A stretch of DNA of 64,000 bases, taken from contig JAVZOV010000004.1 in NCBI GenBank assembly GCA_038881895.1, positions 34,521 through 98,520 of the forward strand, given 5' to 3'. This stretch comes from Thermoprotei archaeon. GTDB taxonomy: Archaea > Thermoproteota > Thermoprotei > Gearchaeales > WAQG01. Below are positions 2,463 to 64,000 of the stretch, piece after piece. The notes beneath the pieces are model-generated. The model was not told the DNA's origin and did no database searches. It saw only the letters and a program-made list of their open reading frames with translations. The translations under genes were made by a program, and so were the position numbers. Within the stretch, counting starts at the first letter, position 1. Each line of letters starts with the position of its first letter.

Positions 2463-3965
2463 ATGCCAGGTTTTACGGTCTATGGTAAGAACGGAATTGT
2501 TGTGTCACAAAATTATCATGCATCAATGGCTGGGATTAAAATACTTGAGAACGGAGGAAACGCATTCGATGCGGCAATTACAATAAGTTCAGTTCTTTCA
2601 GTAGTAATTCCTCACACTGGTGGATTAGGCGGTGATGGTTTTATACTCGCAATAACACCGGATAGTATTATAGGTTATAATGGTTCAGGTCCTGCTCCTT
2701 CAGGGTTCGATGAAAAGGAATACATAAACATTAAACCAATACGTGGACCACTAACCATTACAATACCAGGCTTAGTAGACTTATGGCGATGGATTTATGA
2801 CAAGTATTGCACAAAAGGTCTTGAAGAACTACTTTCACAAGCAATATCGTTAGCAGTTAACGGATTCCCAGTTAGTGATGAATTGGCGCGCGCTACGGAA
2901 GCTTCGAAAAATACTCTTGCCGCTTATCAAGGTTGGAATAGATTGTACGGAAATCTAAAATCTGGTGATTGGTTCATACAAAAAGATCTAGGTGAGGTAT
3001 TGAAAAAAATAGGTAAATTTGGACCTGAAGAATTTTACAAAGGAGAACTTGCAGGAGAATTAATTAGTGGTTTAAGAGCACAGGATGTGCCGATAGACAT
3101 TAGAGATTTGAGAGTTTATAAAGGCGAACAAGTCAGACCGTTAAGATCAGAATATAGAAATTATGACGTTTATGAATTACCACCCAATACCCAAGGCATT
3201 ACAACACTTGAAATTCTGTCTATGATAGAAGAATCTAATGTTGATAAGTTAGATTTTAACGATACACAAAGAATTGCATTGCAATTAAAAATCGCAGGAT
3301 TAGCGTATGAAGATCGCGATACGTTTTTAGGAGATCCAAGATTTTTCCAAATACCTGTCGAGAAACTTCTCTCTAAAAATTATCTAAGAAACAGAATACA
3401 AAAGAAACAAGGTAATATACTAAAAGATGCCGATACAACATTCTTTGCAGTTGCTGATAGGTTTGGTAACATGGTAGGATTCATTCAAAGTCTCTTTTAC
3501 CCATTTGGGTCAGGAATAGTAGTTAAAGGAATACCGTTTCAAAATAGAGGTGTAGGATTCGCTAAATCCCTCTCATCTCCAAATAGACCAGGTAAAGGCA
3601 GAAGACCCCTCCATACACTTTCAATACTTCTAGCAGAAAAAGGTGAACGAAAACTTATTATTGGATGTGCAGGTGGAGATTTACGACCTCAAATTCATTC
3701 TGAAATACTTGAAAATATTATTAGCTATAACATGAAAATTTCCAAAGCTGTAGACGCACCAAGGTTTATGTTAACTGAGTGGAATAAACACTTTACTGCA
3801 ATTATTGAAGGAAGGTTATCATTACCAAAAAGTAATGAGATAAAAATAGAAACATTACCATATTACAGTAGCAGTGTAGGGATAGCAAACGTAATCGAAT
3901 ATACACAAGGGATGTACGCTGCCACATCTGATCCAAGAAGTGAAGGAGTCGCTATGGCAATATAA
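2463..3965 (+). CDS. ggt: Gamma-glutamyltransferase (Ntn-hydrolase family)
   Basis: TGGLGGDGF motif and putative Thr nucleophile context DTTFFAVADRFGNMV; 500 aa. Confidence 0.8.
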   Translation: MPGFTVYGKNGIVVSQNYHASMAGIKILENGGNAFDAAITISSVLSVVIPHTGGLGGDGFILAITPDSIIGYNGSGPAPSGFDEKEYINIKPIRGPLTITIPGLVDLWRWIYDKYCTKGLEELLSQAISLAVNGFPVSDELARATEASKNTLAAYQGWNRLYGNLKSGDWFIQKDLGEVLKKIGKFGPEEFYKGELAGELISGLRAQDVPIDIRDLRVYKGEQVRPLRSEYRNYDVYELPPNTQGITTLEILSMIEESNVDKLDFNDTQRIALQLKIAGLAYEDRDTFLGDPRFFQIPVEKLLSKNYLRNRIQKKQGNILKDADTTFFAVADRFGNMVGFIQSLFYPFGSGIVVKGIPFQNRGVGFAKSLSSPNRPGKGRRPLHTLSILLAEKGERKLIIGCAGGDLRPQIHSEILENIISYNMKISKAVDAPRFMLTEWNKHFTAIIEGRLSLPKSNEIKIETLPYYSSSVGIANVIEYTQGMYAATSDPRSEGVAMAI

Positions 3966-5123
3966 TCATGTAACTTTCACCTCAATTTTTTGCAGTATTT
4001 TTCTTAGTATGTCGATGGTGTTTCTTATATCATCGTATGTTATCATGTATGGTGGTAAAAATCTAACAGTAGTTACTCCAGCTTTAAGCGATAAGATCTT
4101 TTCCTCTTGAAGTGTCTTTATGATACTTGATGGGTTTGTACGCATATCGATTCCTATCATAAATCCAATTCCTCTAATATCACGCACAATATCAAAATCT
4201 TTTAAATTAACCTTAAGTAGATTAATAAAATCCTTTCCCTTCTCTCTAACATTATTAGTTACATTATCGCTTTTTAAAACTCTTACTGATGCAGTAACAG
4301 CAGCCATAGCAAGAGGATTTCCACCGTATGTACTGCCGTGATCACCTTCATCCAGCTTACTGGCAATCCAATCTGGCATGAATACTGCACTCACTGGAAA
4401 ACCTCCGCCAATGGCCTTACCAGCAGCCATTATATCTGGTTTTGTATTAAAATGTTGATGCGCCCATATTTTTCCAGTCCTTCCAAATCCACTCTGAATT
4501 TCATCTACTATAAGAATACTACCAGTATCATCAGCAATATCCCTCAAAGCTTTCATAAAATCTGGCTGTGCGGGTATAACGCCTCCTTCACCTTGGACTG
4601 GTTCGACTATTATTCCTGCAACAGTATCGTTCACAACCTTTAATGATTCAATATTATTGAATTCAGCAAATATAACATCACTCATAAGGGGTTCGAAAGG
4701 TTCTCTATACTTTTTATTCCATGTAAGGGATAAAGCTGCAAAAGTCCTGCCGTGAAAAGAATTTTTAAAAGCAACAAATTTCTTTCTTTTTGTGACCTTT
4801 TTAGCAATTTTCACTGCCAATTCTATAGCTTCACTACCACTATTTAAAAGAAAAACATTATTAAGGTCATCAGGTTTCACGTATTCAAGTTCATTTAACA
4901 TTTCATCACGTATTGATGATGAGAAAGCTGTAGACAAAGTCATTATTTCGTTCATTTGTCTACTTAAATATTCAATAACAACTTTATTCCTATGACCAAG
5001 AAAAGCCACACCATGCCCAGTATGTAAATCAAGATATTTGACACCATTTTCATCCCATACGTACTGATCCTTACCCTTAACAATTTTAAGTCCTCTATTA
5101 CCAAAAAAACTAATTAATTTCAA
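3966..5123 (-). CDS. lysJ: Class-III aminotransferase, LysJ/ArgD type
   Basis: PLP-dependent aminotransferase fold with a lysine-containing motif ([13 protein letters not shown]); last gene of the lysWXJ unit. Confidence 0.8.
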
Positions 5124-10274: not shown

Positions 10275-11345
10275 TTATTCACTTAAAACTATGATAGAAG
10301 CTGCTTTTATTATAAGATAAATTATATCATTTTGTTTTAGTTCAAGCTCTTCAAAAAAACCTCGCGTTATCATAATTTTAATAGGTAAGTTATTAACATT
10401 AACAGTTATCATTATTGTAGGACCGGATGGTTCAATAGCTTCAATTGAACCTTTTAACACATTTCGTGATGTAGAGCGTTCAGGCATGGTTTTACTTATT
10501 AGTATATTTTCAGGTTTAATACCTATCATTATACGGCCATCATGTTTTCCAGGGATAGTGAGTTTAACATTATCAATAAATATTGTACTCATATTATCTT
10601 TACTACTCTTTGCAATACCAGTAAATATGTTCTGATACTGGAGAAATTCTGCAACAAATTTGCTCTTTGGCTTTGAAAATATCTGACCAGTTAATCCTTG
10701 TTCAATAATAGTTCCATTCTTCATTACAGCAAGCATCTCACCCAGATACATAGCTTCTTCCTGGTCGTGTGTTACATGCAGCACTGGTATTTCATAATAT
10801 TTTAATAATTTTTTGATCTCTTTCCAAAACTGTTTCCTTGTAACCAGGTCCAAGGAAGAAAATGGTTCATCCAGTAAGATAACCTTTGGTCTGACAGCTA
10901 AAGCCCTGGCTAATGCCACACGTTGTTTCTCACCACCACTTAAATTTGTCACATAACGGTTTTTCAAATGTTCTAATCCAAAAAGTTTAAGCATTTCACT
11001 AACTCTTTCTTCTCGAACATTTCTAGGAAAACCTCTGGCTAATAATCCATATTCGATATTCTCGTAAACTGTTAAATGAGGGAACAATGCAAGATTTTGA
11101 AATACCATCGAGATATTCCTTTTCTCAGGTGGTAAGTTAGTTATTTCAGTATCATCGATAAACACTTGACCCCCAATAATTTGTCTTAATCCAGCTATAC
11201 TTTCAAGCAATGTAGTTTTTCCAGAACCAGTAGGACCTAGTATCACCATCCATGAACCATTAGGTATTTTGAACGATATATTTCTCAACATAAAAGAACC
11301 CACTTTAACGCTCAAATCCTTAACCGTAAGAACCGTACACACCAC
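10275..11345 (-). CDS. ABC transporter ATP-binding protein with C-terminal TOBE-like domain (molybdate/tungstate/sulfate type)
   Basis: Walker A GPTGSGKTT, signature LSGGEKQRVALARAL, Walker B ILLDEPFSSLD; ~120-aa C-terminal extension. Confidence 0.8.
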   Translation of the reverse strand: MVCTVLTVKDLSVKVGSFMLRNISFKIPNGSWMVILGPTGSGKTTLLESIAGLRQIIGGQVFIDDTEITNLPPEKRNISMVFQNLALFPHLTVYENIEYGLLARGFPRNVREERVSEMLKLFGLEHLKNRYVTNLSGGEKQRVALARALAVRPKVILLDEPFSSLDLVTRKQFWKEIKKLLKYYEIPVLHVTHDQEEAMYLGEMLAVMKNGTIIEQGLTGQIFSKPKSKFVAEFLQYQNIFTGIAKSSKDNMSTIFIDNVKLTIPGKHDGRIMIGIKPENILISKTMPERSTSRNVLKGSIEAIEPSGPTIMITVNVNNLPIKIMITRGFFEELELKQNDIIYLIIKAASIIVLSE

Positions 11346-12153
11346 CTCTCCGTTGAATAATCTTAAGTGTTATAAACAGTATTAGACTCACCAGTACCAA
11401 TAGTGATGTTATCGGCAACGCATTATATAATCCCCTTGTTGTAAATTCATTATAAATAAGAACTGGTGCCGACATACTCCCAGAAAAAGGTCCATAAAGT
11501 ATTACATAAGTTAACACTATCACTGCACCAAATTCACTCATCCCACGAGCCCATGATACTATTAAACCAGTAAAGATAGCATTTTTTATGAGAGGCAATA
11601 TAACCTTATAGAAAGTGAAACCATGCGAAGCTCCTAATGTTCTGGATACCTTCTCTAACGATGGGTCAATAAGTCTGATGGCACTCTCAACTGATCGTAC
11701 ATAAAGCGGAAAACTAACAAATAGCTCTGCAATTACAATCCCCAAAAACGTATCAGTAACTCTAATGCCTTGAGATGATAAAACTGTTCCAAGTAACCCT
11801 CTTGGACCCCACACTATTAATAATGCTATTCCTGCTACCAAATGAGGAATTATCATGGGGAGATCAACAACAGAATCAATAATGTATTTGCCTGGAAAAT
11901 CATATCTAGCTAAAATATAAGCTAACGGTGTACCTAGAATAAAAGAAAGAACAGCAGCAAACGCAGCAGACAAAATCGTAACTAAAATAGCGGAAGTAAC
12001 TTGTGCATCAACAATATAATACATTAAAGTATACGGAGAACTACTTATCAAAAGAGAAAAAATAGGCAACAAAATAAAAAGAACACTAAACAGTGAAATC
12101 AATGAAAAAAACATCAATAAGAGTTTTAAATTGTGCATGATTCCCTCAACCAC
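11320..12153 (-). CDS. ABC transporter permease (ModB/WtpB-like)
   Basis: Polytopic membrane protein immediately upstream of, and overlapping, the ATPase gene. Confidence 0.7.
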   Translation of the reverse strand: MVEGIMHNLKLLLMFFSLISLFSVLFILLPIFSLLISSSPYTLMYYIVDAQVTSAILVTILSAAFAAVLSFILGTPLAYILARYDFPGKYIIDSVVDLPMIIPHLVAGIALLIVWGPRGLLGTVLSSQGIRVTDTFLGIVIAELFVSFPLYVRSVESAIRLIDPSLEKVSRTLGASHGFTFYKVILPLIKNAIFTGLIVSWARGMSEFGAVIVLTYVILYGPFSGSMSAPVLIYNEFTTRGLYNALPITSLLVLVSLILFITLKIIQRRGGVYGSYG

Positions 12154-13186
12154 TAATCGGTGTTATTAATCCAGTATATAAAAGATCTTTCAACTCACTT
12201 GGCAACCCCTCACTACCATAAACATAAGCTGGAGAGAAACTTTTCTGCCCGTTTTTCTCAATAATTTTCCTACCCTCTTCTGATAAAAGAATCTTAATGA
12301 ACTCTATTGCTAACCTCTTATTGGGGGCATTATAAGGTATTGTTAAAGCATACATTATTGGTTGACCACTCACAACTTTACCATTAACTGTAACTGACAC
12401 TTCAGAATATATTTCGGCATATCTTGGATCACCTAGATTTACCTGAGGGGGAAGTCTTACATAATTCAGATGATGCTGTACAGCTAGTGAATAATAAGAT
12501 ATTACATAATCAACTTGTCCAGACTCTAATGGTGCTAATAAATCAACTTCTTTAGGTTTTATTATAAGCTCACCATTAGAATACTTATTTTTATAAAGCA
12601 TATCGTATAGCGTGTGATTATCATGATAATAATACATACTGGCAAGCTTTGTAACCAATACTGCCCTATAACCACTAGGATCTCTATCTTTATCCGAAAC
12701 TCCCACGATAACTCCCGGACGTGCAATTATTTTATACCAATTATTCTCATCAATCTCTGAAGCATACTTACTCCTATTAGTATAAAGAACAACCATTTCA
12801 TTACCTGCAAAAACGATATACCAGCTTGTAAACCTAGGTAGCATGAGGTCACGTATTACATAATAATCAGCAACACCAACAATATCAAACTCGCGACCTA
12901 AATCCGTTACTTGACGAACCGCATCAACACTTCCAAAAGCTTCATCATCGATAACCAAATTAGGATACTTATTTTTTAGCATTCCCTCAATTTGTTGAAA
13001 GGGTATTGTAAGACTACCCGCATGAACCACTCTAAAAACGTTTAAAGAAGCTCCATAAAAACCAATGTTATATCCATCATTGTATCCATATATGTAACCT
13101 ACATAAAAACCGACAACAAGCATTATAACCATAGATATTATCATAATGAGCTTTCCATACTTATCCCACAACGCCACAAAGATCAC
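12146..13186 (-). CDS. Substrate-binding protein of the molybdate/tungstate-type ABC transporter (WtpA/ModA-like)
   Basis: N-terminal membrane anchor followed by a periplasmic-binding-protein-like body; first gene of the three-gene transporter operon. Confidence 0.6.
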   Translation of the reverse strand: MIFVALWDKYGKLIMIISMVIMLVVGFYVGYIYGYNDGYNIGFYGASLNVFRVVHAGSLTIPFQQIEGMLKNKYPNLVIDDEAFGSVDAVRQVTDLGREFDIVGVADYYVIRDLMLPRFTSWYIVFAGNEMVVLYTNRSKYASEIDENNWYKIIARPGVIVGVSDKDRDPSGYRAVLVTKLASMYYYHDNHTLYDMLYKNKYSNGELIIKPKEVDLLAPLESGQVDYVISYYSLAVQHHLNYVRLPPQVNLGDPRYAEIYSEVSVTVNGKVVSGQPIMYALTIPYNAPNKRLAIEFIKILLSEEGRKIIEKNGQKSFSPAYVYGSEGLPSELKDLLYTGLITPISG

Positions 13187-13513
13187 CGATATGTATAACA
13201 GTTCATATCGAATATAAACTTGACTGTGTTTATTCCACCTTGATGATAAACAGTCAACAGTGAAGAGAATCCAATAATATTCGTTAACGTTACTCCCAAC
13301 AAAATACTGACATCAAGGAGAATCGTAAAAAGAACAATACGCCATCATATTTTATAACCCTCTGAAGACGATGCTTTCAGTTGTAGAATGATATTAATCA
13401 TGAATAGAAAAAGTATGGAATTCGTGGCACCGCAAGGTTTATGAATTGCTAGGGAACTCAATCAATCTAAAAAGTTATTAGTGAGCTTGATAATGTTTTA
13501 ATAGTGTAAAAAT

Positions 13514-14593
13514 ATGTTACAGTTTAAACTTCAAACTAGATTTAGTTTCATTTCTAACAATACATTAATCGATGAAGAACTTATTGAATTGCTTAAAGAA
13601 ATAAAAAGAAGCAGTTCTTTAATTTTAGCTGCTAAAAAAATACGCGTATCATATAAGTATGCATGGAAAAAACTCAATGAGACTAGTAGAGCTTTAGGAA
13701 CACCATTAGTAATAACAACAAGAGGAGGAAAATTTGGTGGAAGGACAGAATTGACCATAACAGGTGAAGAATTGTTAAGAAGATATGGACTGTTTACAAA
13801 ATATGCGTCAATAGAATTGCAAAATACTTTTAAAAAATATGTTATTGATAGTGATATAAACATTGTTGGTAGTCATTGTCCAGGCATAGAATTAGCATTG
13901 AAAACAATGGCATCTAAAAACTCAGAATTGAGATTTCATGTAGAAAACACAGGGTCCTTAAATGGTTTAATAAGTATAGAGGAAGGGAAATCTGATATTG
14001 CAGGAATACACCTACTAGATCCAGAAAGTGAAAAGTACAATGAACCATATATAAAGAAGCTTAATCTGAAAAACGTAATACTTATAAAAGGATACAAGAG
14101 AGAACAGGGATTAATAGTAAGAAAAGGCAACCCCAAAGGAATAAGAGGCATGGCTGACATTATCACTAGAAAAGGAATCTTTGTAAATAGAAACATGGGC
14201 TCAGGAACAAGAATACTCTTTGAAAAATTACTCTACAAAACAGCAAAAGAGTTTCAAATTAATTTTGAAGATGCAAAAAATTCTATACGTTATTATCCTC
14301 ATGAAGTCAACTCACACGCTGAAGTAGCACAAATAATACTTAAAGGATATGCTGACGTAGGATTAGGAATAAGAACAGTCGCAGACCAATATGGCTTAGA
14401 CTTTATACCACTAACTCTGGAAGAATTTGACTTTATAACCAATAATCAATCAATTAAGAATCCAGTAGTAAAGAAATTTTTCGCACTACTATCCTCACAA
14501 ACATTCAAACAAAAACTAACAAAATCACTAACAGGGATACATCCAACAGAAAATACTGGAAAAATCGAGAAAATAGATGATCCTCTTCCCTGA
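13514..14593 (+). CDS. ModE-like winged-helix regulator fused to a PBP-like (oxyanion-binding) domain
   Basis: N-terminus (LILAAKKIRVSYKYAWKKLNETSRALGTPLVITTRGGKFGGRTELTITGEELL) matches the ModE N-terminal HTH with its GG..GG motif. The C-terminal domain is homologous to the C-terminal domain of the MoeA fusion at 61725-63701. Divergent to the transporter operon. Confidence 0.65.
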   Translation: MLQFKLQTRFSFISNNTLIDEELIELLKEIKRSSSLILAAKKIRVSYKYAWKKLNETSRALGTPLVITTRGGKFGGRTELTITGEELLRRYGLFTKYASIELQNTFKKYVIDSDINIVGSHCPGIELALKTMASKNSELRFHVENTGSLNGLISIEEGKSDIAGIHLLDPESEKYNEPYIKKLNLKNVILIKGYKREQGLIVRKGNPKGIRGMADIITRKGIFVNRNMGSGTRILFEKLLYKTAKEFQINFEDAKNSIRYYPHEVNSHAEVAQIILKGYADVGLGIRTVADQYGLDFIPLTLEEFDFITNNQSIKNPVVKKFFALLSSQTFKQKLTKSLTGIHPTENTGKIEKIDDPLP

Positions 14594-14641: not shown

Positions 14642-15370
14642 TCATCTCTGATCCTCTTTAATAAAGTTATAAATCCACACATCAGATACTCTAGTTGGGA
14701 AAATAGGCCTCACATATTTTAATACACTGTATGCAGGTATAGTTGAGATCAAAACATGAACTACATTATAAATTCCTGTAAATACTAAAACCCAAAAAAG
14801 TACTGTGAAATCACCTTGTATCAATAAACCAAACTTACTTAATAAGTATTTAGCATAACTAAAGAAGCTAGTCCCATAGATAAGATATATGACAATTATA
14901 TTAGCCAAAGTCATAAGCACAACACGAATCAGTGAGCCAAAAATGATCATTGACACAATAAGACCATGTATCGATGAGCCATTGAATCTCTTGTATAATA
15001 TAGAACCAATCCAGAATCCCAACACCATGGAGAGAACAGCAATATATTTCATCAAAGGACCTATTATAGGCCATCCAGCACCAAAATTAAGTAACAACCA
15101 ATGTATCGTAGTTGTAGCAAGACCGACAACAGGTCCAAAAACCAAAAACGCAGAAACATCAATGATCTCTGCAAAATCAAACTCCAAATATGGAAGTATT
15201 GGAAACGGAATTTCTAATTTAAGAAGAGTAATGGCAGCTGCCAAGCTACCAAAGATTGCTGAGTAAACAATCATTGACGAACGCATACCGTTCACCACTA
15301 AAGGGTAACCGATATCAAAAAGATAAAAGTACTTACAAAATATTTGGTTAATCCGTATAAAGGTCAGCAC
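14642..15370 (-). CDS. Hypothetical polytopic membrane protein
   Basis: Multiple hydrophobic helices; no recognisable catalytic motif. Confidence 0.4.
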   Translation of the reverse strand: MLTFIRINQIFCKYFYLFDIGYPLVVNGMRSSMIVYSAIFGSLAAAITLLKLEIPFPILPYLEFDFAEIIDVSAFLVFGPVVGLATTTIHWLLLNFGAGWPIIGPLMKYIAVLSMVLGFWIGSILYKRFNGSSIHGLIVSMIIFGSLIRVVLMTLANIIVIYLIYGTSFFSYAKYLLSKFGLLIQGDFTVLFWVLVFTGIYNVVHVLISTIPAYSVLKYVRPIFPTRVSDVWIYNFIKEDQR

Positions 15371-20778: not shown

Positions 20779-22818
20779 TTATTTTGTTTCCTTTTTTGTT
20801 TCTTGTAACGAATTACCTAAAAGTTCTGCTACATCCATTACTTCCATATTGAATTCTGAGGCTTCGCTGCGCAACATTACATTACAAAACGGGCACGCGA
20901 CTACCACCTTATTTACATTAGTTGATGAAGCTTCTCTCATTCTAACTTTGCTTATTCTCTCACCTTTCTTTATATCGAAAAATGCATGTCCTCCTCCGCC
21001 GCCACAGCAAAATGTATTTCGTTTGATTCTATTCATCTCTTTAATTTCAGCAACATTTTTTATGATGTCTCTTGGTTCATTGTAAATGTTATTCCATCTT
21101 GCTAAGTAGCATGGATCATGATAGGTAACACTTTCTTTTGTTTTATTAATGCTTAATTTACCTTCTTTTATGAGCCTTTGTAGTAATATAGTATGGTGTT
21201 CAACCTCTATTTTTACTCCATACTGAACATATTCATGCTTGAAATTATTATAACCATGCGGACAATTAACTAATAATTTCTTGAATTTATATTTTTTAAG
21301 TATGTTTGAATTCTTTTGCACGATGTCCCTAAATAAGTACTCATCCCCTATTCTTCTTGCTGGCTCACCACAACAAACTTCTTCTAGCAAAACTGCAAAA
21401 TTTATATCAGCTTTTTTAAGAATCTTCATCAAATTATAGGCTACACTCCTAATGTTTGGATCGTAACTTGCATTACAACCTAACCAGTATATATAATCAT
21501 ACTCTATTTCTTCACGAGCTATCTCAACATTAAGTTCTGACGTCACAGATTTTAACCATGCCTCTCTATCCGCAGGATTATAACCATAAGGATTACCAGT
21601 TCTCATTATGTTATACGAGACTTGCTGTAATTCAGATGGTGTGTTTTCTCCAGAGGAATATATTCCACGTCTAAGATCTATTATAGTCTCAACCTGATTT
21701 ATTAAGACGGGACATACTTCAACACATGCACCGCATGTTACACAAGACCATATAACATCTGGGTTTATAGAATCTGGCACTAACTTTTTATTAAAATTCC
21801 TTTTATGCATTTCCTTTTTAGTATCAAGCATTACCATCATCGGACTTAATGGCTTCCCAGTGAGATTTGCTGGACATGCATTATGGCATCTCGCACATTG
21901 AGTGCACGCATCAAAATCCATTCGTTGCTTCCAAGACAAATCTGAAAGCATTACAGCCCCTATAGGCTTACCTTCCTCTACCAGCTTGTCCATGTTAGTT
22001 ATTGGTTTGTTAGCTGCAACAACTGGTTCTTCTAGTCTAGAAAAGAACGTATTTAGAATACCACTAACGAACATATGATAGAACTTTGTAAAAGGTATGA
22101 GGGCAATACTAGCAAGTGCTAGTGTTAAATGAAACACCCAAAGTATTCTATAAAACTCAATATAATTATTACCAAAGAGACTTCTAATAGAAAAAGCAAG
22201 AGGATAACCTATTACGTCCCAATCGTCAATCCATTGTAATCTGTAATTTAAAGTATTGATAGCATCCAGTATGAAACCTGTTACTATTATTATTAATAAG
22301 TCGATTAAAATTAGATAATCTTCTCGAGACGTAGGCAAATCTCTGTACGTTTTAAACACTCGTCTAATCAATGCTAATACTATGCCTATAATAGCCAAAA
22401 CACCTGAAATGTTAACCATAAGCTTAAACATTAAATACGCTGAGTCAACAAGAAATCTTGAACCGAAAAATCGTAAATATACATCATACTCTATTCCACG
22501 AAGTATCGTACCTATAAAAAGACCGATCATACCAATATAAATAAACACATGCACTGTGCCTCCTTGTTTCTGTCTTATAACCTTTGCTTGGAGTATGCCA
22601 TATTTGATAAGTCGTGATAATCGTTTTCCAAAATGATCAAAACTTATCCTTTGTCCTCCATAACTCCATAATTTAAAACTTCTGTAAACACCGTAAAGTA
22701 ATATTATAGCTACAATTATAGTATATATGTACACAAGAGATTCTAGATCCTCAACAAGGTTAAAATGTTTAATACCTTCAAATACATATAGAATATTTTG
22801 AACAAAAAACATGTACAT
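20779..22818 (-). CDS. Membrane-bound Fe-S oxidoreductase, fused HdrE-like (membrane, His-containing) + 2x[4Fe-4S] ferredoxin + HdrD-like double CCG domain; candidate ETF-linked quinone reductase (EtfD-like)
   Basis: Five or six N-terminal TM helices with conserved His; CTQCARCHNACP and CVTCGACVEVCP ferredoxin motifs; CCG-domain cysteine clusters (VCCGEP..., CCGGGGGHAFF, ACPFC); directly downstream of etfB-etfA on the same strand. Confidence 0.65.
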   Translation of the reverse strand: MYMFFVQNILYVFEGIKHFNLVEDLESLVYIYTIIVAIILLYGVYRSFKLWSYGGQRISFDHFGKRLSRLIKYGILQAKVIRQKQGGTVHVFIYIGMIGLFIGTILRGIEYDVYLRFFGSRFLVDSAYLMFKLMVNISGVLAIIGIVLALIRRVFKTYRDLPTSREDYLILIDLLIIIVTGFILDAINTLNYRLQWIDDWDVIGYPLAFSIRSLFGNNYIEFYRILWVFHLTLALASIALIPFTKFYHMFVSGILNTFFSRLEEPVVAANKPITNMDKLVEEGKPIGAVMLSDLSWKQRMDFDACTQCARCHNACPANLTGKPLSPMMVMLDTKKEMHKRNFNKKLVPDSINPDVIWSCVTCGACVEVCPVLINQVETIIDLRRGIYSSGENTPSELQQVSYNIMRTGNPYGYNPADREAWLKSVTSELNVEIAREEIEYDYIYWLGCNASYDPNIRSVAYNLMKILKKADINFAVLLEEVCCGEPARRIGDEYLFRDIVQKNSNILKKYKFKKLLVNCPHGYNNFKHEYVQYGVKIEVEHHTILLQRLIKEGKLSINKTKESVTYHDPCYLARWNNIYNEPRDIIKNVAEIKEMNRIKRNTFCCGGGGGHAFFDIKKGERISKVRMREASSTNVNKVVVACPFCNVMLRSEASEFNMEVMDVAELLGNSLQETKKETK

Positions 22819-59090: not shown

Positions 59091-60068
59091 TTATCTATTT
59101 AATTGTTTAGACCACTGTAATAATGTTTTCACTCGTCTTACTGGATGCGGGTGTGTGCTGAGAAATTCTGCAAGCCTTTCAGAAAATGTTAACTCTCTCC
59201 TAGCTAAGTCATAAACTATTACCTCATCTCCACTAATCGTCATTGGTTTCGCAGCTTCAGGATCCGAAATAAGCAGTGCTCTAAACTTTGATGAGGAACT
59301 TATCGCATCTGGATTTCTCTCTCTTATTTCTGACGTAGAGTTACTTATTTTAACTAAAGCTACTGCTAACTTCATTGCACCACCATCGACAACTGTTGCA
59401 CCGTTATAATCTGCGTACGTCTCACGTTGTCTACTAAAAGCAAGTAACAGTAAGTTTAGTATAAAGTACACTATAAATCCTATGATGCCAATCAACACTA
59501 AAATAAAACCAGAATTTCCATTATTCCTTCTGCCACCACTAATTGATGAAAACCATCCTGAATAATACAAGGCTTGTGAAATCGCATACACTATAGCTGG
59601 AAGAACACTAAGCAAAGTTATAACTTGCACATCATGATGCCTTAAATGTCCAACCTCATGACCTATCACAGCTTCAAGTTCATCAGGTTTTAGCACTTTT
59701 AAAATACCCTTTGTCACTGCTATTCTTGGACCCGTAAGCCAACTACCATAAGCGAATGCATTAGGCACTGGTATATCAGCTATCATAAGTTTTGGAATCT
59801 TCCTTAACTTACTTCTCTGTGCAACTCTCTCGACTACATCATAAAGCCACTTATATGACTCATCAGCAGGTTTAACCTTATAACTCCATTCTATTACATA
59901 AGGACCAATGAGCCATTCAATAAAAACCCACAGTGCTACTAGTATTGCTAAGGCTAACGGTGTCAATCCACCTATTAACGCTAGAATTGGCATCAGAAAG
60001 AGTGCTGTAACACCTACGATAACTAAGAACGTGATAGTCATAATGATCCACAGTCTCCATGGCATCAT
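59091..60068 (-). CDS. htpX: M48-family zinc metalloprotease (HtpX-like)
   Basis: HEVGH zinc motif (IGHEVGHLRHHD) with flanking TM helices. Confidence 0.75.
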   Translation of the reverse strand: MMPWRLWIIMTITFLVIVGVTALFLMPILALIGGLTPLALAILVALWVFIEWLIGPYVIEWSYKVKPADESYKWLYDVVERVAQRSKLRKIPKLMIADIPVPNAFAYGSWLTGPRIAVTKGILKVLKPDELEAVIGHEVGHLRHHDVQVITLLSVLPAIVYAISQALYYSGWFSSISGGRRNNGNSGFILVLIGIIGFIVYFILNLLLLAFSRQRETYADYNGATVVDGGAMKLAVALVKISNSTSEIRERNPDAISSSSKFRALLISDPEAAKPMTISGDEVIVYDLARRELTFSERLAEFLSTHPHPVRRVKTLLQWSKQLNR

Positions 60069-60252: not shown

Positions 60253-60438
60253 ATGGAAGAAGAACTGCTTAGACCAAAGGATGTTGCAAAGATATTCAAC
60301 ATCTCAGTTAAAACGCTCTGGAAGTGGCAGAGGAAAGGCATTATTAGAGCAGTTAAACTTCCAACTGGCAAGCTCCGCTACCCGAGGAGCGAAGTTGAGA
60401 GGCTATGGAAGCAGTTAAAAGCTACAGGATCCCAATAG
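60253..60438 (+). CDS. Small MerR/excisionase-type HTH protein (61 aa), resembling only the DNA-binding N-terminus of an IS607-type TnpA
   Basis: MEEELLRPKDVAKIFNISVKTLWKWQRKGIIRAVKLPTGKLRYPRSEVERLW; overlaps the tnpB start. The listed 176-aa ORF is a spurious upstream extension overlapping htpX. Confidence 0.55.
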   Translation: MEEELLRPKDVAKIFNISVKTLWKWQRKGIIRAVKLPTGKLRYPRSEVERLWKQLKATGSQ

Positions 60439-61592
60439 AGGCTCCAAAAGATTTAATCGAAGAATACTTCAAAGCTAAGCGGAAGGCTTTAGACGCAATA
60501 TTCTCACACGTTAAAATTTCCAAGAAGGCTCACCTTAACTTGAAAGCTGAGGATAGGAGAGAGCTTAGAGATGAACTGCTGAAAGACTGGAGGTTTTCAA
60601 AGCATTACGTTGATTCAGCAATGAACTCCGTTATCGGATTGGTTAAGGGCTGGATAACACTATATAACAAGGGGAAAGCTGAAGGTAAGCCTGAGATAAC
60701 TAAAAAAACCGTTTACATTAAGAGCACGCTCTTCAGCTTTAGAAATGGTATACTGAGGATAAGCGTAGAGCCTAGTAAGCGGTATCTTGAGGTTGACTTA
60801 AGAAAGTGTTCGTGGATTCCGAGAGACTTTGATAAAGTCGGTGGACTACTTATGACTGAAAGTGAGCTGATAATTACAGTTAAGAAGAGGGTTGAGCCCA
60901 AAGCTGATAAGTGGGCTTCCTTCGATGTGAACTTAACGAACGTGACGGCGTTCATAGGTGGCGAGATCAAGCGCTATGACTTAAGAGAGCTCTACCACAT
61001 TCACAGAGTTTATGAGGTTAAAAGACAGAGGATACAAAAGTTATCTAAGATTAAGCCTCTAACCTCAAAGAGACTATTAGAGAAGTACTCTAAGCGTGAG
61101 GAGAATAGGGCTAAAGACTTCATGCATAAGTTAACCACGCAGGTTGCGAGGGAGCTCAAGGAGAAGGACTGCGGAGCGATACTTGAAAACCTGAAAGGTA
61201 TAAAGGGGCGAATTCTTAATGGCTCAAGGAAAAATAACAGAAAGCTCTCAAAGTGGAACGCAAGAACATTCCAACTCATGCTCGAATACAAGCTGAAATG
61301 GCTTAACCTACCAACAAAATACGTTAGCCCAGCCAACTCATCTAAAACTTGCCCAGCCTGCTCAGGAAGCATGGCTTCCTATCTGGGCAGGATAATGAAG
61401 TGCGAAGAATGCGGGTTAACGATGGATAGGGATGTTGTAGCGGTGTTGAACCTTCAGATGCGGGGAGAAGGGTTCACCCAGAGAGCCCTCAATGAAATAA
61501 TTGAGGGGGAAGGGTTAAGTAGGAATAAAAGCAACAATTCACTATGCATTCCTACTCAACTCAGAACCCATTACATAAAGCTAACCGTTTGA
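60405..61592 (+). CDS. tnpB: TnpB (second, distinct family member; RuvC-like nuclease with zinc finger)
   Basis: RuvC-I ASFDVNLTNV, RuvC-II Glu (AILENLKG), zinc finger CPACSGS...CEECG, RuvC-III DRDVVAVLNL; GC-rich relative to flanks. Confidence 0.85.
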   Translation: MEAVKSYRIPIEAPKDLIEEYFKAKRKALDAIFSHVKISKKAHLNLKAEDRRELRDELLKDWRFSKHYVDSAMNSVIGLVKGWITLYNKGKAEGKPEITKKTVYIKSTLFSFRNGILRISVEPSKRYLEVDLRKCSWIPRDFDKVGGLLMTESELIITVKKRVEPKADKWASFDVNLTNVTAFIGGEIKRYDLRELYHIHRVYEVKRQRIQKLSKIKPLTSKRLLEKYSKREENRAKDFMHKLTTQVARELKEKDCGAILENLKGIKGRILNGSRKNNRKLSKWNARTFQLMLEYKLKWLNLPTKYVSPANSSKTCPACSGSMASYLGRIMKCEECGLTMDRDVVAVLNLQMRGEGFTQRALNEIIEGEGLSRNKSNNSLCIPTQLRTHYIKLTV

Positions 61593-61724: not shown

Positions 61725-63701
61725 TTATTTGGATATTATTTGACCGGTATCTTTGTGTATTTTATATCCGGATAAACGTTTTTGAAGGGCATCAGCAAAT
61801 TCTTGCGATTTTAATACGTTGACAAATTTCTTTACTGAATCTTTTTCTAAGCGATCTATTGGTATTAGAAAATCATAAAATTCTTCTCCAATAGGTATAA
61901 AATCTAAATCATAAGCGTCAGCAACACTCTTGATTGCAACACCTACATCAGCTCGGCCTTGAGCAATAGCAGCCGCAACACCAGAATGTGTTTTTGCCTC
62001 AGTATAATACCCGCGTATCATGCTTATTAGTTCTTGAAAACTAATATTTTTTGTAAATGCTAATTCTCTTAATTTCATATCTATTAATGCGCGTGTGCCA
62101 GAACCTTTATTCCTATTTATAAATCTTATATTGGGTTTTAATAAATCTTCGAAACTTTTTATATTTAACGGATTACCTTTCTCAACGATAAATCCTTGCA
62201 GTCGTACATATCCTCTAATTAACACAGCTTTACCCCTTAATCCATATGTATCCATGAATGGTATATTGTACTCATTCGTCTGTTCATCAAATAAATGTGT
62301 GCCTGCAATATCAGCCTCTCCTCTTTTTACTGCAAGCCAGCCACCTACAGACCCAATGTTTATAACTTTTATGTATTCAAAGTCGCCCAGCTCAGTAATT
62401 AAATCTACACCTGGACAGTGGCTCCCTATGATTATGAGATCGGCTGGCCTAAAATATCGTGAGATTAATTTTACTTCCACACTCTCATTTTCCTCTAGAA
62501 ATTCATGAGACTCGGGTATCTCTATAAACCCGTCTGCAAATGCTAAAACAGTAGCTGAACCTGAACTAGCAAGCAATGGGTATGCTTTATAACGATCCTG
62601 AACTTGGACTATATTTACTGGCAGATACTCTCTCTTACCTTTACCGGTTTGAACTTTAAAAGCCATTTCTGCTTGGATTTTTGCTTCGCTCTGTTTTGGT
62701 GAAAGTCCAATAATCTTAGCAAGTATAGGTCGAACAAAGACTAGAAATGCTACCATTGAAGATAGAGGAAATCCAGGCAATCCAAATAATAATTTATTAT
62801 TAACAACAGCAGCTATTGTTGGTTTTCCAGGCTTAATCTTGAGACCGTGAACTATTAAACCTGGTTTACCTAAATTATTGAAAACCCTATATATAGTGTC
62901 TCTAATACCAGCTGATGTACCACCCGAAGTAATTACTACATCATAGTTCTCGTATGCTCTTGAAATAACATCCTCAATTAGCTTAGGATCATCCGGTAAT
63001 ACACCTAGATAACTTGGTTGTGCGCCCATTTCAGCAACCATGCTGCTTAACGAGAAACCATTAACATCGTATACTTTGGCTGGCCCCAATTTGGAACCCG
63101 GCATCACAATTTCGTCGCCAGTAGAGATAATAGCGATACGTGGTTTCACATACACCCTGACCATGTGTATGCCTAAGCCTGCTAATACTGCTATTTCTCT
63201 TGCGTTAAGTAGTGTACCTTTTCTCAACGCTCTTTCTCCAATCCTAATATCGGAGCCAGTTTGTGCAACGTTCTCACCTGGATGAACAGATTTATAAATA
63301 AGAACTCTTTTTTCATTAATTTTTTTGGTATGTTCAACCATAACTACAGCATCAGCACCTCTAGGTAAAGGAGCGCCAGTATCTATCTCTACAGCCTCAT
63401 TAAGATTTACCTCAACACCTGGTATTTTTCCAACAATTGAAGTACCTACAATTTTTAACTCAACAGGCTTATCTTCATCGGCTTCAAAAGTACTACGAGA
63501 ATCTACAGCATAACCATCGACCTCTGAACGATCAAAAGGAGGTAAATCAATTGTTGCATAAACATTTTCTGCTAATACACGTCCTAGTGCGCGTTCTAAT
63601 GGTATTATTTCTACTCCAAGGGGTTTAAGCCCGCCAAGAGCATTTTCAACAGCTTGGATCGCTTCTTCAACAGTTAAAAGCTTATGAAATATTATTGCCA
63701 T
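61725..63701 (-). CDS. moeA: Molybdopterin molybdotransferase MoeA fused to a C-terminal PBP-like domain
   Basis: MoeA N-terminal and MPT-binding domains, plus a ~250-aa C-terminal domain homologous to the C-terminus of the ModE-like protein at 13514-14593. Confidence 0.75.
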   Translation of the reverse strand: MAIIFHKLLTVEEAIQAVENALGGLKPLGVEIIPLERALGRVLAENVYATIDLPPFDRSEVDGYAVDSRSTFEADEDKPVELKIVGTSIVGKIPGVEVNLNEAVEIDTGAPLPRGADAVVMVEHTKKINEKRVLIYKSVHPGENVAQTGSDIRIGERALRKGTLLNAREIAVLAGLGIHMVRVYVKPRIAIISTGDEIVMPGSKLGPAKVYDVNGFSLSSMVAEMGAQPSYLGVLPDDPKLIEDVISRAYENYDVVITSGGTSAGIRDTIYRVFNNLGKPGLIVHGLKIKPGKPTIAAVVNNKLLFGLPGFPLSSMVAFLVFVRPILAKIIGLSPKQSEAKIQAEMAFKVQTGKGKREYLPVNIVQVQDRYKAYPLLASSGSATVLAFADGFIEIPESHEFLEENESVEVKLISRYFRPADLIIIGSHCPGVDLITELGDFEYIKVINIGSVGGWLAVKRGEADIAGTHLFDEQTNEYNIPFMDTYGLRGKAVLIRGYVRLQGFIVEKGNPLNIKSFEDLLKPNIRFINRNKGSGTRALIDMKLRELAFTKNISFQELISMIRGYYTEAKTHSGVAAAIAQGRADVGVAIKSVADAYDLDFIPIGEEFYDFLIPIDRLEKDSVKKFVNVLKSQEFADALQKRLSGYKIHKDTGQIISK

Positions 63702-63704
63702 CTT

Positions 63705-64000
63705 TCATTCCTCCTCATAAATAGGTTGGGTTAAGATTATTTCAACTTCATCACCCTCATCATATCCCTCGATGTTCTCAGGTATTACCAGTAAACCATT
63801 AGCCTTTGTTAATGTTGAAAGAATGCCCGAACCTGTTAAACGTAATGGTTCTGCAATGTATCCTTCTTTACTTTTCCTAACTTTTACTCTCATGAAAGAT
63901 CTAAACCCAACTGGTGCAGCAATCCTTCTGAATAATCTAGCCCTAATCTTTGGCATAGGTTCTTCGGGCTGATTGAGAAGCATCTTAAGTACTGGTCTCA
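63705..64000 (-). CDS. MoeA-family protein, C-terminal domain (N-terminus outside the window)
   Basis: Frame stays open to the window edge; sequence resembles the MoeA C-terminal beta-barrel domain (...GILSTLTKANGLLVIPENIEGYDEGDEVEIIL). Confidence 0.5.
   Translation of the reverse strand, partial: RPVLKMLLNQPEEPMPKIRARLFRRIAAPVGFRSFMRVKVRKSKEGYIAEPLRLTGSGILSTLTKANGLLVIPENIEGYDEGDEVEIILTQPIYEEE

Follow-up and report, generated by a model that had tools for sequence, protein, structure and literature searches.

A predicted ModE-box operator and its putative oxyanion-responsive regulator at the wtpABC locus of a Thermoprotei archaeon

ModE_N domains and ModE boxes are known, archaea included (Studholme & Pau 2003, as cited in PMC12327845), and in Methanosarcina acetivorans a box of the form RTTATGT-N8-RCATAAY binds ModE in electrophoretic mobility shift assays (PMC12327845). 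The Desulfovibrio regulator TaoR/TupR (DVU3193) is reported to control the transport of tungstate as well as tungstoenzymes, and to be tungstate-responsive in vivo (Rajeev et al. 2019, Environ Microbiol 21:784), and the archaeal MoeA1-PBP fusion has been proposed to capture tungstate and channel the oxyanion to the active site, with tungsten specificity also proposed (PMC11733289). Here we consider a regulator gene (13514-14593, plus strand) in a 64,000-nt stretch of contig JAVZOV010000004.1 from a Thermoprotei archaeon (hereafter the window, G+C ~33%), which encodes a ModE-type winged helix joined to a PBP_like (PF12727) sensor domain and lies divergent from a wtpABC operon. We consider it likely that the product is a tungstate/molybdate-responsive regulator that binds a 24-bp box at the wtpA promoter and represses wtpABC by promoter occlusion when the oxyanion is ample.

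A conserved palindrome at the wtpA promoter

The features of the locus are as follows.

10275-11345, minus strand: wtpC, ATPase; ABC_tran and a C-terminal TOBE domain
11320-12153, minus strand: wtpB, permease; NF040839 (E 2e-71, under cut-off) and BPD_transp_1
12146-13177, minus strand: wtpA, tungstate/molybdate substrate-binding protein; likely start GTG 13177 (MALWDKYGK), longest open reading frame (ORF) from 13186
13182-13187, minus strand: likely wtpA Shine-Dalgarno (SD) sequence GGTGAT, sharing the last base of the operator
13187-13210: predicted operator, perfect palindrome CGATATG-N10-CATATCG, a ModE-box variant
13211-13218, minus strand: putative wtpA TATA box TTTATATT, directly 5' of the operator; TTTATA invariant in 7 orthologous loci
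13471-13481, plus strand: AAAGTTATTAG, a possible promoter element for the regulator gene, ~35 nt before its ATG
13514-14593, plus strand: regulator gene, 359 aa; ModE-type winged helix, long linker helix, PF12727 PBP_like sensor domain
13568-13828, plus strand: ModE_N-type winged helix-turn-helix (wHTH) domain, residues ~19-105; recognition-helix motif SYKYAW; TIGR00637 and structures 1b9m, 1o7l, 2ijl
13826-14566, plus strand: predicted PBP_like (PF12727) oxyanion-binding domain, residues ~105-351; Pfam E 1.4e-58

Seven distinct orthologous loci, with regulators 62-84% identical, were compared, those of relatives being taken with flanks of a few kb (4-6 kb per side). In all of them the regulator gene is divergent from a syntenic wtpA-wtpB-wtpC operon; for the window, where the transporter genes lie on the minus strand, the initial annotation had already described the regulator as divergent from the ABC transporter operon. 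The palindrome stands at the same position in 7/7 loci, between the TATA box and the SD/start codon of wtpA, and its arms are exact while its spacer varies. The remaining DNA between wtpA and the regulator gene is unalignable among the orthologs, only the wtpA-proximal end aligning, and the intergenic length ranges from 101 to 645 bp (327 bp in the window, 13187-13513); the spacer separating the two genes changes greatly from locus to locus, but the operator does not. Moreover, CGATATG-N10-CATATCG in its exact form occurs once in the 64-kb window.

The elements surrounding the palindrome are conserved in a manner that agrees with a compact archaeal promoter. The column pattern over the orthologs immediately 5' of it, TTTATA(T/A)(T/G), points to a TATA box by comparison with the archaeal consensus, and on the other side the columns GG.GA are invariant (GGTGA in 6/7 loci, GGCGA in L006), for which a comparison with the crenarchaeal anti-SD suggests a role as SD. 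Ortholog WtpA proteins start MSLWDKYGK, 9-10 nt past the palindrome, and the position of this conserved N-terminus, M(A/S)LWDKYGK, makes GTG 13177 the likely start of wtpA, not 13186; the identity of WtpA itself is well supported (TIGR03730, 283 bits, over the cut-off of 243). Upstream of the regulator gene, the candidate element at 13471-13481 is found as AAAGTTATTA(G/A) in L004 and L011 also, and as AAGGTTATTAG in L001, and may function as its promoter.

The variable spacer yields several observations of its own. Two 84%-identical relatives (L001, at 3804-4877, and L012) carry a gene for a 357-aa ORC/Cdc6-like protein (ATPase_2/AAA_22/WHD_MCM) inserted between wtpA and the regulator gene; a remnant of such an insertion was sought in the 327-bp spacer of the window by tblastn, and no trace was detected. 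In L009, the 645-bp spacer contains a 20-nt perfect inverted repeat (4655-4674 and 4826-4845, ~150 bp apart), and the pair may be a miniature transposable element. The initial annotation had drawn attention to a near-direct repeat in the spacer of the window, which is indeed present (atggaattcgtg at 13415-13426 and atgaattgc at 13441-13449) as a 7-8 nt imperfect match that the repeat search did not list as a direct-repeat family; as a promoter element it is unconserved in any ortholog, and we rejected it as an operator, its surroundings being unalignable among the orthologs and the conserved element being the 24-bp box.

Distant members of the regulator family (35-40% identity), originating from Nitrososphaeria, Bathyarchaeia and other Thermoproteota, either end a tupA-tupB-tupC operon or diverge from tupA, and some adjoin moeA genes (TupA and TupB are the top NCBIfam matches in these loci, with E 1e-44 to 1e-61, under the equivalog cut-offs). 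Upstream of tupA in these distant loci, palindromes of 23-24 bp follow a TATA-like box and precede the start codon.

L023: tupA box CGTTATATATTCAATGATATAACG
L031: tupA box CGTTATATCTGCAAGGTTATAACG
L013 and L039: tupA box CGTTATG-N9-CATAACG

The exact core of the window's clade, TATG-N10-CATA, is absent from distant family loci and was rejected as a family-wide box. The broader pattern CGWTAT-N11/12-ATAWCG, which was derived only after the tupA upstream regions had been inspected, has 12 occurrences in a non-redundant set of related loci (679 kb), whereas shuffled sequences contained 0.41 on average and never more than 3. All 12 sites lie just upstream of a wtpA or tupA gene adjoining a ModE_N-PBP_like gene, and none was found in MoeA-only loci. 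The sequence CGTTATATTGTCGCCTACATAACG just upstream of modA in Escherichia coli K-12 fits CGWTAT-N12-ATAWCG, as does the box in the window, and is reported to lie in the ModE-protected region (Anderson 1997; Grunden 1999); the window box and the M. acetivorans ModE box furthermore have the core TATG-N10-CATA in common. Judged by sequence, the site at 13187-13210 is a ModE box, and the ModE-type domain of the regulator would be its obvious reader. A ModE-type box is found at oxyanion-transporter promoters from E. coli to several classes of archaea, irrespective of the sensor domain that the regulator carries.

Two further aspects of the wider family deserve mention. In distant members a box also precedes the regulator gene itself, be it inside the operon or in a divergent region of 60 bp, which implies autoregulation there, whereas in the window's clade autoregulation appears doubtful, given that as much as several hundred variable bp lie between the box and the regulator promoter. 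In addition, four loci of Bathyarchaeia (L014, L016, L024 and L026) possess, just upstream of tupA, a variant box CGTTATATTC-N4-GAATACATTG with the inner palindrome TATTC-N4-GAATA, the left half of which is a ModE half-site while the right half deviates, so that the variant does not fit the strict pattern; the recognition helix of the corresponding regulators reads SYPFLWN, as opposed to SYKxAW.

The regulator and its sensor domain

The regulator is 100% identical to P0001, a protein of a 'Thermoprotei archaeon' metagenome-assembled genome (MAG), and exact-sequence look-ups of this protein and of the MoeA fusion protein discussed below returned no record for either. Its N-terminal domain matches TIGR00637 over residues 19-105 (E 9e-20, 70.5 bits, under the cut-off of 98.5), and the E. 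coli ModE structures 1b9m and 1o7l match residues 18-96 at E 2e-7 when the single sequence is used and at E 9e-19 with a 45-sequence family profile. The recognition-helix motif SYKxAW is common to the regulator and E. coli ModE. In Pfam searches residues 105-351 correspond to PF12727, and the regulator gave no match to Mop/TOBE (PF03459), HTH_17 (PF12728) or LysR_substrate (PF03466), with HTH_1 reaching only 19.6 bits, under its cut-off of 26.6. Given the lack of a Mop/TOBE domain, the protein is not a ModE ortholog but a fusion of ModE_N and PBP_like, and the combination of a ModE-type HTH with a PBP-like domain that was initially proposed for it is borne out by TIGR00637, the ModE structures and a PF12727 match over cut-off.

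An AlphaFold2 model of the regulator (predicted local distance difference test, pLDDT, 90.3) comprises a winged helix, a linker helix (residues 82-109) and a two-lobed periplasmic-binding-protein (PBP) fold. Its top full-length Foldseek matches are LysR-type regulators (E ~1e-13; e.g. CcmR 5y2v, CbnR and the sulfite-sensing YeiE), a likeness which, as far as the model indicates, is one of layout and fold only. Full-length two-domain homologs of ~350-370 aa number in the dozens in Thermoprotei, Bathyarchaeia and Nitrososphaeria, with one from a Chloroflexota MAG, and many carry the JGI name 'molybdate transport repressor ModE-like protein'. A fusion of ModE_N with COG1910 is said to have been described by Zhang and Gladyshev in 2008. 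Beside the regulator, a conserved membrane-protein gene (14642-15370, minus strand) stands tail-to-tail with it in all orthologous loci, and matches the S components of energy-coupling factor (ECF) transporters weakly (PF12822, E 4e-4, under cut-off).

The C-terminal domain scores 197.7 bits against PF12727, for which the cut-off is 27, and possesses putative anion-binding loops at GSH 119-121, GS 147-148 and R226/GSGTR 229-233, together with invariant H166 and D169. We built a sensor profile from 22 PBP_like domains (regulators, MoeA fusions, bacterial HTH_17-PBP proteins and one other HTH fusion), and its top solved relative is the PstS-type phosphate receptor 1twy of Vibrio cholerae (E 1.6e-10), in which GST corresponds to GSH of the regulator, GS to GS (147-148), and R-E-A-S-S-G-T-R to R-N-M-G-S-G-T-R. 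Residues G119, S120, G147, S148, R226, G231, T232 and R233 are invariant over all sampled classes, and G229 and S230 nearly so; H166, D169, N176, R196 and D281 are also invariant over regulators, MoeA fusions and HTH_17-PBP proteins. A model of the PBP domain by itself (pLDDT 93.8) has phosphate- and sulfate-binding proteins as its nearest folds, plus LysR effector domains, with Foldseek template modelling (TM) scores of 0.68-0.69 for PstS (4gd5 and 4q8r) and a maximum of 0.71 for the sulfate-binding SubI.

The sensor is accordingly modelled as an intact receptor for a tetrahedral oxyanion, although the fold does not by itself fix the choice of oxyanion for a PF12727 sensor. None of the PDB matches by sequence or fold was a PF12727 structure with bound tungstate or molybdate, and an alignment of the PBP_like profile to WtpA of the window, aimed at mapping metal ligands, was weak (hhalign probability 13%). 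Tungstate or molybdate is suggested as the ligand by the fusion of the same domain to MoeA, by genomic linkage, by the tungstate dependence of TaoR and by the tungsten specificity proposed for MoeA1-PBP. In addition, the PBP region of the MoeA fusion scores above the Pfam cut-off for SBP_bac_11, a family that chiefly binds molybdate and tungstate (PMC10443332). The role in sensing these oxyanions that was originally suggested for the regulator is, in sum, backed by the alignment with the MoeA domain, the Pfam and PDB profiles, the conserved loops, and the linkage to wtpABC/tupABC and moeA.

The MoeA1-PBP fusion and the shared domain

A second copy of the PBP_like domain is located near the far end of the window.

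61725-63701, minus strand: moeA1-PBP fusion, 658 aa; MoeA_N, MoCF_biosynth, MoeA_C and PBP_like (domain at ~61737-62468)
63705-63983, minus strand: 3' end of a second, unfused moeA; PF03454 E 1e-20, only MoeA_C visible, ORF beginning at an internal ATG

The initial annotation had placed both the regulator and the fusion ORF at exactly the coordinates given here, and had claimed that the two proteins share their C-terminal domain. A pairwise alignment settles the latter point far past chance: in BLASTP, regulator residues 99-351 align to residues 407-655 of the MoeA fusion with 39% identity and 60% positives over 255 residues (E 5e-54). Pfam assigns PF12727 to the fusion too (216.1 bits against the cut-off of 27), and the short shared segments that had been quoted are real (GSHCPGIEL/GSHCPGVDL, KGNPKGI/KGNPLNI and NRNMGSGTR/NRNKGSGTR). 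The fusion protein further scores 790.7 bits against NF011068 (cut-off 534), and all four of its Pfam domains are present.

In a neighbour-joining tree, the PBP domains of archaeal regulators and MoeA proteins form one clade (bootstrap 86-94), from which the bacterial HTH_17-PBP domains are separate (bootstrap 100). The regulator of the window falls in a clade of its own, to which the MoeA domain of the window is not sister, and on this basis a recent intragenomic duplication of the PBP domain was rejected; deeper nodes are poorly supported (bootstrap 2-31), and consequently the order of fusion events cannot be stated.

The initial annotation had also read the shared domain as a sign of coordinated control of the transporter and MoeA, and this finds no support from the operator. 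The box is unique in the window, which at up to 3 mismatches contains no second copy bar a chance-level match at 4126, the upstream region of the window's own moeA lying past the window end. In an 84%-identical relative (L094), the 14-kb moaE-moeA-moeA-PBP locus likewise has no copy when up to 2 mismatches are allowed, and L092 has a single match with 2 mismatches, which is intragenic. "Coordination" consists at most of one ligand-reading module in two proteins, not of co-regulation via one operator. A more ambitious version of this idea, which we offer tentatively and regard as somewhat unlikely, would hold that ModE_N-PBP_like proteins are the main tungstate-specific sensors of Thermoproteota (TACK), and that their sensor is deliberately the same module as that of MoeA1, the two forming a two-point homeostat. 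If so, transporter repression and cofactor loading would read one intracellular tungstate pool with matched affinity, and the defined box CGATATG-N10-CATATCG would make the tungsten-versus-molybdenum selectivity of the module directly assayable.

The unfused moeA stands in tandem upstream of moeA1-PBP in the window, and this tandem recurs in most archaeal loci fetched, preceded by moaE in L094. There it belongs to a larger cofactor cluster (3458-7980 of L094, against 61725 to beyond 64000 of the window, which cuts inside the cluster), comprising a divergent MoaB/MogA-like gene and a short ORF ending in ...FSGG (a MoaD-like candidate), followed by moaE, moeA and moeA-PBP. On the other side of moeA1-PBP, a TnpB/Cas12f1-like IS200/IS605 OrfB gene (60405-61592, plus strand; Cas12f1-like_TNB and OrfB_IS605 domains) lies between the fusion gene and a peptidase M48 gene (59091-60068). 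In L094 the corresponding gap measures ~760 bp and contains no ORF of at least 100 aa, and by this comparison the OrfB gene looks like a recent insertion. Elsewhere in the window, the gene at 20779-22818 (minus strand) encodes a 679-aa protein with a NarI-like membrane domain (Nitrate_red_gam), 4Fe-4S dicluster motifs and two CCG domains (HdrD/DsrK-like), possibly a membrane-bound oxidoreductase of heterodisulfide-reductase type that is unrelated to the regulator.

Proposed mechanism, alternatives and known systems

In the mechanism that we favour, the regulator would be a cytoplasmic transcription factor, presumably a dimer, whose ModE-type winged helices would bind CGATATG-N10-CATATCG at 13187-13210. 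Its PBP_like domain would be a clamshell receptor for oxyanions with a PstS/ModA-class fold and would bind intracellular WO4(2-)/MoO4(2-), and the ligand-bound protein would occupy the operator and block the assembly of TATA-binding protein (TBP), transcription factor B (TFB) and RNA polymerase (RNAP), oxyanion uptake being switched off, by analogy with ModE, when the supply of the cell suffices. Binding to the box, the identity of the ligand, the dependence on it and the repressive effect are steps that we infer. The predicted operator follows the TATA box and covers the expected transcription start, a placement typical of archaeal repressors, which thereby block recruitment of TFB and RNAP. 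The TOBE domain of WtpC (PF03459, E 3.7e-9) represents a second, independent oxyanion-binding module at the locus. In related transporters TOBE mediates trans-inhibition, and by analogy it could do so here, in which case there would be two feedback layers on oxyanion uptake.

Several points weigh against this mechanism. The TIGR00637 and HTH_1 scores are both under curated cut-offs, the solved proteins closest to the sensor domain are binders of phosphate and not of tungstate, and the overlap of the operator with the transcription start site is placed by TATA-to-start geometry only. Moreover, the literature searched yields no experimental work on this protein or on any ModE_N-PF12727 member, and for both M. 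acetivorans ModE and TaoR the oxyanion left DNA binding in vitro unchanged, so that ligand-dependent occupancy is not guaranteed here.

This last point leads to an alternative hypothesis, namely that the regulator binds its box constitutively and uses PBP_like for oligomerisation or protein-protein signalling, or that it activates wtpABC under oxyanion scarcity. Besides the oxyanion-independent binding just mentioned, E. coli ModE carries a dual-regulator annotation, and in LysR-type regulators, to which the protein is similar in overall fold, the effector domain also serves oligomerisation. However, in all lineages the operator lies downstream of TATA and abuts the SD/start codon, as befits an archaeal repressor and not an activator, and the putative anion-binding residues are invariant or nearly so, which argues for ligand binding having been kept; we therefore consider this hypothesis unlikely. 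That the palindrome instead serves another factor, or forms an RNA or terminator structure, its closeness to the regulator being coincidental, strikes us as extremely improbable. A 7-nt inverted repeat is admittedly insignificant by itself in AT-rich DNA (381 nt contain 10 inverted pairs), yet the arms never vary, show no compensatory changes and enclose a variable spacer, which is the signature of a protein site and not of an RNA stem. Furthermore, the box is found only with ModE_N-PBP_like genes across phyla and matches those of proven ModE-type proteins, and a known RNA element (e.g. a molybdenum cofactor riboswitch) was rejected, there being no Rfam match and no terminator-like site.

A different potential explanation concerns the ligand, in that the regulator may sense another tetrahedral oxyanion (phosphate, sulfate or thiosulfate) or a phosphorylated metabolite. 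Its closest solved relatives are phosphate-binding and sulfate-binding proteins and the phosphometabolite binder PEB3, PDB structures of PF12727 are listed with a phosphate ligand, and the R...GSGT loop is PstS-like. We nevertheless regard this as very unlikely, since linkage to a WtpA- or TupA-type transporter, and often to moeA too, holds in every lineage examined, no pst or cys genes occur among the three neighbouring transporters typed, and MoeA, an enzyme that inserts metal, carries this domain as well. An Asp gives PstS its phosphate specificity, and in the alignment an invariant His appears to take its place. The PBP_like regulator TaoR, moreover, is reported to be tungstate-responsive in vivo.

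With repression of wtpABC by a tungstate/molybdate-bound regulator as the preferred reading, the locus refines known biology and adds nothing new in kind. The regulator is a well-supported yet ordinary member of an already annotated regulator family, and its components were known before, namely ModE_N and ModE boxes, PBP_like as a tungstate-related sensor (TaoR), and the MoeA1-PBP fusion (2025). What is added is the specific operator of a Thermoprotei clade, and one class of box that follows the architecture over several archaeal classes. The locus bears on tungstate sensing in Thermoproteota and on the ligand of the PBP_like domain of archaeal MoeA1, for which a 359-aa regulator with MoeA1's module and a minimal archaeal promoter with a precisely delimited 24-bp operator provide a compact test system.

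Compared with the described systems, the regulator resembles ModE of E. coli and M. acetivorans in its homologous N-terminal winged helix, in the class of its operator and in having an oxyanion ABC importer as target, but ModE's own sensor consists of one or two Mop/TOBE domains where the window regulator has the PF12727 PBP fold; the setting at an archaeal TATA/TFB promoter is a further difference. TaoR/TupR has a PF12727 sensor with the same invariant loop residues, whereas its DNA-binding domain is HTH_17 and not ModE_N, and its PBP domain falls in the separate bacterial clade; its operator is therefore expected to differ. LysR-type regulators are likewise built from a wHTH, a linker helix and an effector domain with a type-II PBP fold, but the window regulator is without PF03466, its HTH_1 score is sub-threshold, and its effector domain belongs to the oxyanion-receptor branch. 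Finally, archaeal MoeA1-PBP possesses the same PBP_like domain, likewise cytoplasmic, the difference being that it is carried there by an enzyme and in the regulator by a DNA-binding domain.

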